Positions 9,335-11,598 of a stretch of DNA of 64,000 nt are shown piece by piece. Every line of letters begins with the position of its first letter. The stretch's first letter is position 1. Origin of the DNA: Eledone cirrhosa (taxonomy: Eukaryota). Made by a program: the position numbers and the translations under genes. The notes under the pieces were generated by a model. It made no database searches. It saw only the letters and a list, made by a program, of their open reading frames with translations, and was not told the DNA's origin. The stretch covers positions 31,248,001 through 31,312,000 of the forward strand of contig OZ024746.1 of the NCBI GenBank assembly GCA_964016885.1. The letters are read 5' to 3'.

Positions 9335-9337
<3 letters not shown>

Positions 9338-9353
9338 CTTTGAATAACTTTGA
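9335..9353 (-). repeat. Inverted copy of the LINE 3' tail (TAACTTTGAATAACTTTGA)
   Basis: Exact reverse complement of 11580-11598. Confidence 0.95.
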
Positions 9354-11511
9354 TCTTGCACATGTCGACTGGTCCTTCACGCACACTCATACACCCACTA
9401 ACATCAAAAAGTCCTGGCAGACATTTGTGGACACTGTTACAAACATATGTGCTAAACACACCCCATTAAGAACTATAAACAAATCTAAGAGCAGAATCCC
9501 TAGAAATAGAAAAACACTCATCAGAAAAATTAAGAGAACGAACAAAAAAATCAACAAGCTGAAATACTGCCAGCAGCAACACATCAACTTGACTGCCATT
9601 TCATCACTAGAGATTAAAAAACATAACCTCCAAAACAACATAATGTCCCTCATCAACAATCAGAGAAGAGCTGAAGAGGCCTGGGCCATTGAGAAGATCA
9701 AACTCAATCCCAAAGTGTTCTTTTCATTTGCAAAAAAACACAAAATCACTGGCTCTACTGTTGGCCCTCTAATTGATGAAAATGGCACTCTTCAAGACAA
9801 TGCTAAAACCATGGGTGAGATACTGCAGAAACAATACTGCTCTGTTTTCAGCAATCCTGATATGGCCGATCTGGGCTGTATCGGCGATGTTACTCCCCAT
9901 TACACCTTATCGGACATAACGTTTGGCGCCCCTGATGTCTTGGCGGCAATAAAGGAAATCAAGCATAATTCAGCAGTAGGTCCCGATAGGTTCCCTGCTT
10001 GTGTCTTGAAGGCGTGTCAACACCAACTTGCTTCTCCTCTTGCCAATCTGTGGCGGAACTCACTGGATGCTGGATATGTGCCAGAAAACCTTCTATCCCA
10101 GTCTGTTGTCCCAGTTTTCAAAAAGGGAAACAAATCCCTTGCCGTGAATTACCGTCCAATCTCACTCACCTCTCATATCATTAAGGTATTTGAGCGAGTG
10201 GTGAGATCGCGAATGACCCACTTCCTTGAGAGTAACAATATGCTGAACTCCAACCAGCATGGATTCCGTAATGGAAGGGATTGCCTGACGCAACTACTGC
10301 ATCACTTTGATGACATTTTGAGAGCCTTGGGAGAGGGTTCCAACACTGATGTTATCTACCTTGATTTCAGCAAGGCCTTTGACAGGGTTGATCATAACAT
10401 TCTACTGAGAAAGCTGTCCAATATTGGTGTCACTGGAAAGCTGCTGCAGTGGATCAAGAGCTTCCTGTCAAACAGAACCCAACATGTTGTAGTTGAGGGA
10501 GTCAAATCAAGCCCAGCCAAAGTCAGTAGTGGAGTCCCACAAGGCACTGTGTTGGGCCCACTTCTCTTCATCATCTATATTAATGACATCACTGACATCA
10601 TCAAACACAGCAACATTAAAATTTTCGCTGATGATTCCAAGCTCCAAAAGGTCATCAATGGCGTGGATGACCGGATAAGCTTTCAGTCAGACCTACTGGC
10701 TGTTACCCAATGGGCAGAAAAGAACAACATGTTACTGAACGAAGACAAATTCGAACTGATCCACTTTGGAAAAGAGGATGCTCTGAAACTCCCGTACTCC
10801 CTTCCCTCCGGGGAAACTCTCGTGGCATCTAACAACATCAGAGACTTGGGAGTAACCGTGGACAGCAACATAAGCTGGACCACGCATATAAGCAGCAAAG
10901 TTGACATGGCCCGCAGAATGTGTTCCTGGATCCTCAGAACCTTCCAGTCGAGAGATTCCCGCACCATTATCCTTCTCTTCTCTACTTTCGCCCGACCACA
11001 CCTTGAATACTGTTGTCCACTGTGGTCTCCCCACACGAAACAAAGTATCATGAAACTTGAAGCTCCTCAAAGGGCAATCACGAAAAAGATAAATGGCATG
11101 TCAGACCTTGACTACTGGGGTCGATTGGAAAACCTGAAACTTTACTCACTCCAACGTCGCCGTGAGCGTTATATTATCTGCATGATGTGGAAAATGTTCC
11201 ATCATCACTGCCCAAATGATGTTGGCATCGCCTTCAAGATACACCCAAGGCTTGGGCCCCGTGCTATCCGTCCCATTCAAAAATCTAAATCGCAACTCAT
11301 AACAACAATACGGCACAATTATTTCACCTCAATCGGCCCTGCTCTCTTCAACATCACACCAGGACACGTCAAAACAGAAACTGACCACACAAAATTCAAG
11401 AAGTCTTTGGACAAATTCCTCCAAGTAATCCCGGACAAACCACCCACACCCGGATATGTCTCCGCAAACAGTAATTCTCTTCTCGAATGGGCCATGGTGC
11501 CCAAATCCTGA
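9340..11511 (+). CDS. Non-LTR (CR1/L2-group) reverse transcriptase, linker + RT + C-terminal domain; 723 codons open (track start is TTG; first in-frame ATG at 9643)
   Basis: Motifs [95 protein letters not shown]. No APE endonuclease motifs. Confidence 0.93.
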
Positions 11512-11557
11512 ATTGAAAGACTTCGCCAGGTGGTGCTATTAAGTTAGACATGGCCTG

Positions 11558-11598
11558 GGCCAATACTGGCCAAAACATTTCAAAGTTATTCAAAGTTA
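11558..11598 (+). other. LINE 3' recognition stem-loop plus tandem tail
   Basis: GGCCA-ATAC-TGGCC hairpin (11558-11571) followed by (TTCAAAGTTA)2; this layout is typical of CR1/L2 3' ends. Confidence 0.7.

Follow-up and report, generated by a model that had tools for sequence, protein, structure and literature searches.

The insert at positions 9335-11598 of the window (the whole 64,000-nucleotide stretch of Eledone cirrhosa DNA that was analysed) is best explained, with a probability of roughly 0.7, as a 5'-truncated copy of a young CR1-group LINE of the APE+RT type, lying in (TA)n and carrying at its 5' end an inverted piece of its own tail. This piece would stem from the reverse transcriptase (RT) starting a second time, across the break, on the tail of an element RNA.

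At the joint lies a 19-mer, 9335-9353, whose reverse complement recurs exactly at 11580-11598. With up to 3 mismatches allowed, the 19-mer has no match in the window beyond these two (chance mean 0.03), and the window sequence is without N. An earlier reading made from the sequence alone (the sequence-only reading below) had described an exact inverted repeat at the two insert ends, each end adjoining a TA-rich array, and both descriptions are borne out (Table 1). Foreign to the family are the 16 nucleotides 9335-9350 alone, as the TGA at 9351-9353 belongs to the tail and to the element body both. The 19-mer was also considered as ordinary ORF sequence at that place and rejected: the family reads differently upstream of 9351, and contigs of the public runs X1, X2, X3, X4 and X6 continue at 9351/9352 into the family's upstream sequence. 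None of the contigs of X2, X3, X4 and X6 reaches 9335-9350, nor does any listed piece of X1, X3 or X5, and X21 contributed 0 reads; as these runs may stem from other individuals, they say nothing for or against the joint itself.

Table 1. Coordinates of the insert, its parts and its flanking arrays in the window, and tail-only hits of the genome-wide pattern search
Feature	Position	Strand	Remarks
Left TA-rich satellite array	1..~9334-9336	.	C-type on +; total length about 10.5 kb, of which about 1.2 kb precede the window
Inverted 3' tail	9335..9353	-	1.9 copies of the 10-bp unit; left array in direct contact; probable result of a second priming event
Open frame, remainder of ORF2 (APE-RT linker, RT, C-terminus)	9337..11511	+	724 codons, stop included in end
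5'-truncated LINE copy	9351..11598	+	Positions 2751-4998 of the 4,998-nt natural full-length copy
3-nt microhomology TGA	9351..9353	.	Common to inverted tail and element body
Reverse transcriptase domain	10126..10857	+	Pfam RVT_1, aa 264-507 of the frame from 9337, E 4.6e-31
3' UTR stem-loops, predicted	11527-11557 and 11558-11571	+	Folding z -2.83 for 11505-11600
3' tail	11579..11598	+	Two 10-bp units
Right TA-rich satellite array	~11599..13209	.	C-type on +; polarity same as left array
Tail-only hits	~base 1505 of each		L175, L179-L181, L184, L189, L192, L198-L200, L207, L210-L212, L221, L223, L224, L229, L230

The insert and its family

The window copy comprises the last 2,248 of about 5,000 family bases. 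It begins just after the APE domain, is devoid of the family 5' UTR, and differs from a natural full-length copy (L135, 4,998 nt) by 3 substitutions (9570, 10681, 11092). The sequence-only reading fares unevenly on this coding part. The RT frame is indeed uninterrupted from 9337 to the stop ending at 11511, but holds 724 codons instead of the 723 counted there. The absence of an APE domain from the insert is confirmed, Pfam returning RVT_1 as the sole domain of the window frame. The epithet “endonuclease-less” applies to this truncated copy and not to the family, whose ORF2 contains both APE and RT, and the reported lack of ORF1 likewise does not extend to the family. The ATG at 9643 is in frame and would yield 622 amino acids, as stated, but it is an internal methionine of ORF2. 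Longer members with APE, which that reading proposed to look for, do exist: the full-length copy harbors an ORF1 frame of 394 amino acids and an ORF2 frame of 1,045 amino acids, the latter matching PF14529 (E 6.6e-14) and PF03372 (E 2.3e-7) in addition to RVT_1. Since the full copy of the family possesses ORF1 and an APE+RT ORF2, the window copy is an ordinary 5' truncation just after APE, and not a new type of element. With its 5' UTR and APE lost, it is likely dead on arrival.

A whole-genome search of the host's 3.0-Gb assembly with the window insert yielded 1,545 candidates, 40 of which were scored. The other 39 scored copies all agree with the query at about 100% over bases 17-2264, and the 29 copies inspected upstream all run on in common ordinary element sequence. 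The genome contains 2,380 exact 31-nt 3' ends. In a protein search, 5,710 of 8,000 scored proteins match at E<=1e-50; most of the top 120 are about 1,000 amino acids long with a PF14529+PF00078 layout, and the best named match among those listed belongs to Argonauta hians (57%), in keeping with a cephalopod host. The domain layout, the tail type and the RT motifs place this young, abundant LINE probably in the CR1 group. Words of the family reach shares of 0.34-0.90 in public runs of ten organisms, no RNA run being among those listed; this hints at activity of the family in related species in recent times, or at transfer. In the portion of the Octopus vulgaris annotation covered, 13 CR1 families are described as recently active, with their targets left unanalysed there (PMC13282606).

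CR1-group LINEs, as listed in the part of PMC13343379 covered, are CR1, L2, L2A, L2B, Rex1, Daphne, Crack, as well as Kiri. Like them, the family has an ORF1, an ORF2 in which APE precedes RT, a short 3' UTR with stem-loops (by predicted fold), a fixed 3' end with a tandem tail devoid of poly(A), and variable 5' truncation. Unlike them, it is strongly associated with (TA)n at both ends, and its ORF1 combines a weak Myb/SANT-like N-terminus with polyQ. This ORF1 (L135:3721-4902) has its Myb/SANT-like similarity below the Pfam cut-off and also contains two Cys/His repeats resembling CCCH fingers; no ORF1 type with Myb, SANT or CCCH was found in the part of PMC4120745 covered. Membership in Zenon was considered and rejected: Zenon is given, in the same part of PMC13343379, as having no ORF1 and a poly(A) tail, whereas the family has its 394-aa ORF1 frame and a 10-bp tandem tail. 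In the covered part of PMC4176376, the stem-loop of ZfL2 is recognised by the region between EN and RT, and the family 3' end, with predicted stem-loops and tail, may be likened to the stem-loop/tail recognition of ZfL2-1 and ZfL2-2.

Association with TA-rich arrays

The family is strongly tied to (TA)n. In a position-ordered sample (92 copies out of the first 100 listed, on contig C1), the 3' flank is TA-like in 87 of 92 copies and the 5' flank in 72 of 91 readable ones, the background being 27.5% TA-like 30-mers in 387 kb of distal flank. The copies are thus found in one simple repeat far above background, as expected of a microsatellite targeter, and the (TA)n bias that the sequence-only reading proposed to score in other copies is present. 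The 5' breakpoints of the same 92 copies are scattered over reference positions 1-4937. The link to (TA)n may reflect cutting of TA by APE, pairing between tail and target, or capture of breaks. Variant units common to both flanks (e.g. L161, L190) fit a target site duplication (TSD) or a pre-existing array, TSDs being unreadable inside arrays.

The APE-type microsatellite targeters named in the part of PMC3812793 covered are Waldo (ACAY), Mino (AC), Kibi (TC), Koshi (TTC) and Dong (TAA). Like them, the family inserts into a simple repeat and is bordered by it on both sides, regardless of where the 5' end breaks off; its target, (TA)n, sets it apart. TA targets are attributed in that part of the review to Micron MITEs only, and among the further papers listed for TA the elements named are DNA transposons only, for example MuTAnT (PMC4486113). 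The family looks like a (TA)n-seeking CR1-group LINE, TA being otherwise given as a target for DNA transposons only in the literature covered. No report of a CR1-group (TA)n targeter or of a CR1/L2 inverted tail was found among the top 19-20 rows of each literature search, and a prior description may exist elsewhere, for instance in Repbase, Dfam or supplements.

The arrays flanking elements, left and right taken together, have a median of 1,056 bp (520-2168; the right side is censored at 1.5-2 kb). Background arrays in the 387 kb of distal flank have a length-weighted median of 936 bp (quartiles 320-1952), a figure biased by being drawn from the copies' own neighbourhoods. The element as maker of its giant flanking arrays is not supported, as the flanking sizes match the length-weighted background, and insertion into pre-existing arrays is therefore sufficient to explain them. 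Junction words occur in 3 of 62 left arrays, against a null mean of 0.6 and a null maximum of 4, a weak signal.

Several other features of these arrays were recorded. A second giant TA-rich array, at window:17749-20971, is 3.2 kb long with a 23-25-bp higher-order unit, and no match to the family coding region was found in it. Just upstream of the left TA array, in L040 and L048, ends of another repeat abut TA arrays; a motif at these ends may resemble the hammerhead ribozyme of Penelope-like elements. Other repeat ends abut TA arrays in L044, L050, L035 and L147. Young copies lie within a few kb of each other in L082, L108, L112/L113, L145, L148, L153/L154 and L159, in tandem, head-to-head and tail-to-tail arrangements, and seem to do so oftener than one copy per 1.3 Mb suggests. 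In L266 (G000:C3:152996906-152996940), a sense copy has its 3' hairpin region locally inverted just before a TA array.

Recurrence of the inverted-tail joint

The frequency of the 5' inverted tail, another check proposed by the sequence-only reading, has a double answer: the joint recurs at eight loci, but it is rare, being found in 1 of the 92 position-ordered copies (L099; 95% interval 0.03-5.9%). Four degenerate patterns applied genome-wide gave 121 matches, of which 109 were fetched and classified and 12 left unclassified. The classified matches comprise 65 ordinary antisense copies, 19 tail-only insertions in TA, 16 others and 9 direct head-to-head joints. One of these joints is tandemly duplicated, leaving 8 independent loci on 6 contigs, which corresponds to at least 0.3% of the ~2,400 copies. 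Their element bodies start near 1643, 2751 (window), 2986, 3292, 3749, 3794, 3950 and 4895, and at all eight an inverted tail is joined to a truncated sense 5' end, the arrangement looked for as a mark of twin or dual priming.

At each of the eight loci the inverted piece measures 10-24 nt and lies wholly within tail units. The patterns were built for pieces of 10-25 nt and 29-45 nt; for longer ones the coverage is that of the 92 sampled copies and of the first 100 positions listed. None of the 20 loci chosen for a 29-45-nt antisense piece has that piece linked to a sense body, and the long antisense neighbours seen head-to-head among the 92 copies lie 1.1-1.2 kb off, none directly joined. L290 had been a candidate ninth joint from its 32-mer and was rejected, as it is a tail-to-tail neighbour followed by another repeat.

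Seven of the loci have both ends seen. At three of them the inverted piece exceeds the copy's own 3' end in tail units (2.4 vs 2, 2.4 vs 2 and 2.1 vs 1), which makes it more than a simple copy of that end. When the left flank is reverse-complemented, it agrees with the right flank over 0 nt at the window locus, L099 and L248, and over 5-15 nt, mostly plain TA, at the other four. Microhomology is observed at three joints (3, 5 and 5 nt). The remaining five are without clear microhomology: one is blunt, one has ~1 common base, and three have extra or scrambled bases, the joint of L099 being scrambled and multi-switch. At the C28 locus, the inverted piece and the copy's own 3' end have a 13-nt tail variant in common.

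The tail also occurs by itself. Pieces of tail alone, about 14-25 nt long and set in TA arrays, account for 19 hits at 16 loci (Table 1), 3 of which are within 1.5 kb of a long family copy; short tail products are therefore made. In L210-L212 (G000:C5:104542986-104543138), three tail fragments 71 and 51 bp apart are repeated with the satellite period, and in L199/L200 (G000:C959:4172-4643) the fragments are in a palindromic arrangement, so that these arrays have been expanded or rearranged after tail addition. Short duplicates of the element's breakpoint sequence are seen in the adjoining array at the 5' junctions of L147, L087, L154, L169, L045, L050 and L134, and the right array of L147 contains inverted versions of those same duplicated units. 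The junction-templated duplications at L087, L154 and L169 are independent of the tail, and host repair can therefore write such pieces.

Origin of the joint and its precedents

In the second-priming explanation favoured here, a full-length RNP would open a break in (TA)n, or make use of one; the long cDNA, primed by the right-hand 3'-OH, would stop at family position 2751. The left-hand 3'-OH would prime equally well, (TA)n being self-complementary. At this end RT would restart on the 10-bp tail of the same or of a second RNA, and would copy or stutter over 1-2.4 units without entering the stem-loop region. The short product would then be joined to the end of the long cDNA, via TGA at the window locus, and prime second-strand synthesis. 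The joint may stem from one RNA or from two, as both fit. That the left flank is not a mirror of the right agrees with extension from the 3'-OH of the left end itself, and speaks against fold-back or snap-back. The first of the two options entertained by the sequence-only reading, in which both ends of a break are primed on element 3' tails, gains support from the eight loci with their different breakpoints. Its second option, an RT element of fixed length that lacks an endonuclease, ends in terminal inverted repeats and uses spontaneous (TA)n breaks, is refuted in this assembly. The intact RT frame with its in-frame ATG and the perfect 19-nt inverted ends speak for it in the window copy, but the family is ~5.0 kb long with ORF1 and APE+RT, the inverted tail is present in 1 of 92 copies, the breakpoints are variable instead of fixed, both in these copies and across the eight joints, and among the 10 junction-type pattern matches the window alone joins at this place.

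The C28 variant common to both ends also fits copying from the new insertion. A cDNA end or a repair polymerase may indeed have copied the tail, inverted, from the element's own 3' junction, and joined the left array via TA. Templated duplications at other 5' joints (L087, L154 and L169, the 3 of 62 mentioned above), the scrambled and multi-switch joint of L099, and the flanks of L147 with inverted versions of the same variant units are on the side of such copying. It would nevertheless have to account for inverted pieces holding more units than the available template at 3 of 7 loci, for a halt precisely where the tail ends (the 3' flank contributes 0 inverted nt at the window locus, L099 and L248) and for the same array polarity on both sides, and is judged improbable. 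A joint could also arise from two independent insertions into one array, a tail-only piece and a long copy, with the TA between them later deleted. Tail-only fragments exist at 16 loci, 3 of them close to a long copy as noted, and head-to-head neighbours lie 0.2-1.4 kb apart in L108, L148, L188 and L229. However, no TA is left between the parts at the eight joints, the directly joined pieces are all <=24 nt although long antisense copies are far commoner, and the window copy is very young, with its 3 substitutions; this history is quite unlikely. All eight loci rest on one assembly, and a giant satellite is fragile to assemble, which raises the question of an assembly or read artefact, i.e. 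a fold-back chimera in a low-complexity array. Such a chimera would mirror the right flank on the left, yet the match is 0 nt and both arrays are C-type; joints at 8 loci on 6 contigs with different breakpoints, and a window free of N, make this origin very unlikely.

The structure of the joint is already known from primate L1; what is new is its presence in a CR1-group family tied to (TA)n. In the part of Meyer et al. 2010 (PMC2837659) covered, 39 PCR-verified primate L1 loci are described with 5' inverted poly(A) of 14-39 nt, and the premise of the sequence-only reading that L1 twin priming does not invert the tail was wrong. The same part presents twin-priming variants and a proposed dual priming, which its own data cannot separate. 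The loci reported here share with the L1 5' poly(T) loci a sense copy that is truncated and bears its own tail, inverted, at its 5' end, an inverted part that stays within the tail (10-24 nt here, 14-39 nt in L1), and rarity. Differences are found at several levels. The tail is kept at the 3' end in 11 of 37 5'-truncated L1 loci (PMC2837659, part covered) and here in all 7 loci with the 3' end seen. The CR1-group element has a stem-loop and a 10-bp tandem tail whose units are countable at both ends, and its target is the self-complementary (TA)n, in which TSDs are unreadable. Some joints here have microhomology of 3-5 nt, none being significant in L1 according to the same source. To this must be added that the L2-clade element ZfL2-1 gave no 5' inversions in cell culture in the part of Yamaguchi et al. 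2014 (PMC4245944) covered, an absence that speaks against second priming.

A wider claim, possible but rather doubtful at this stage, is that the family represents an undescribed APE-type LINE actively targeting (TA)n, whose RT, the target being self-complementary, would routinely prime anew on the RNA tail once at the second DNA end and then switch to the cDNA. If so, the eight joints and the 16 tail-only loci would be frozen intermediates that provide countable evidence for the dual priming of Meyer et al. and offer insight into the start of second-strand synthesis in the CR1 group. The onset of second-strand synthesis and of 5' joining in LINEs is understood in part, and countable 10-bp units on a palindromic target record more of it than the poly(A) of L1: the surplus of units in 3 of 7 inverted tails speaks against simple copying by snap-back, and dual priming becomes testable across about 2,400 young copies.
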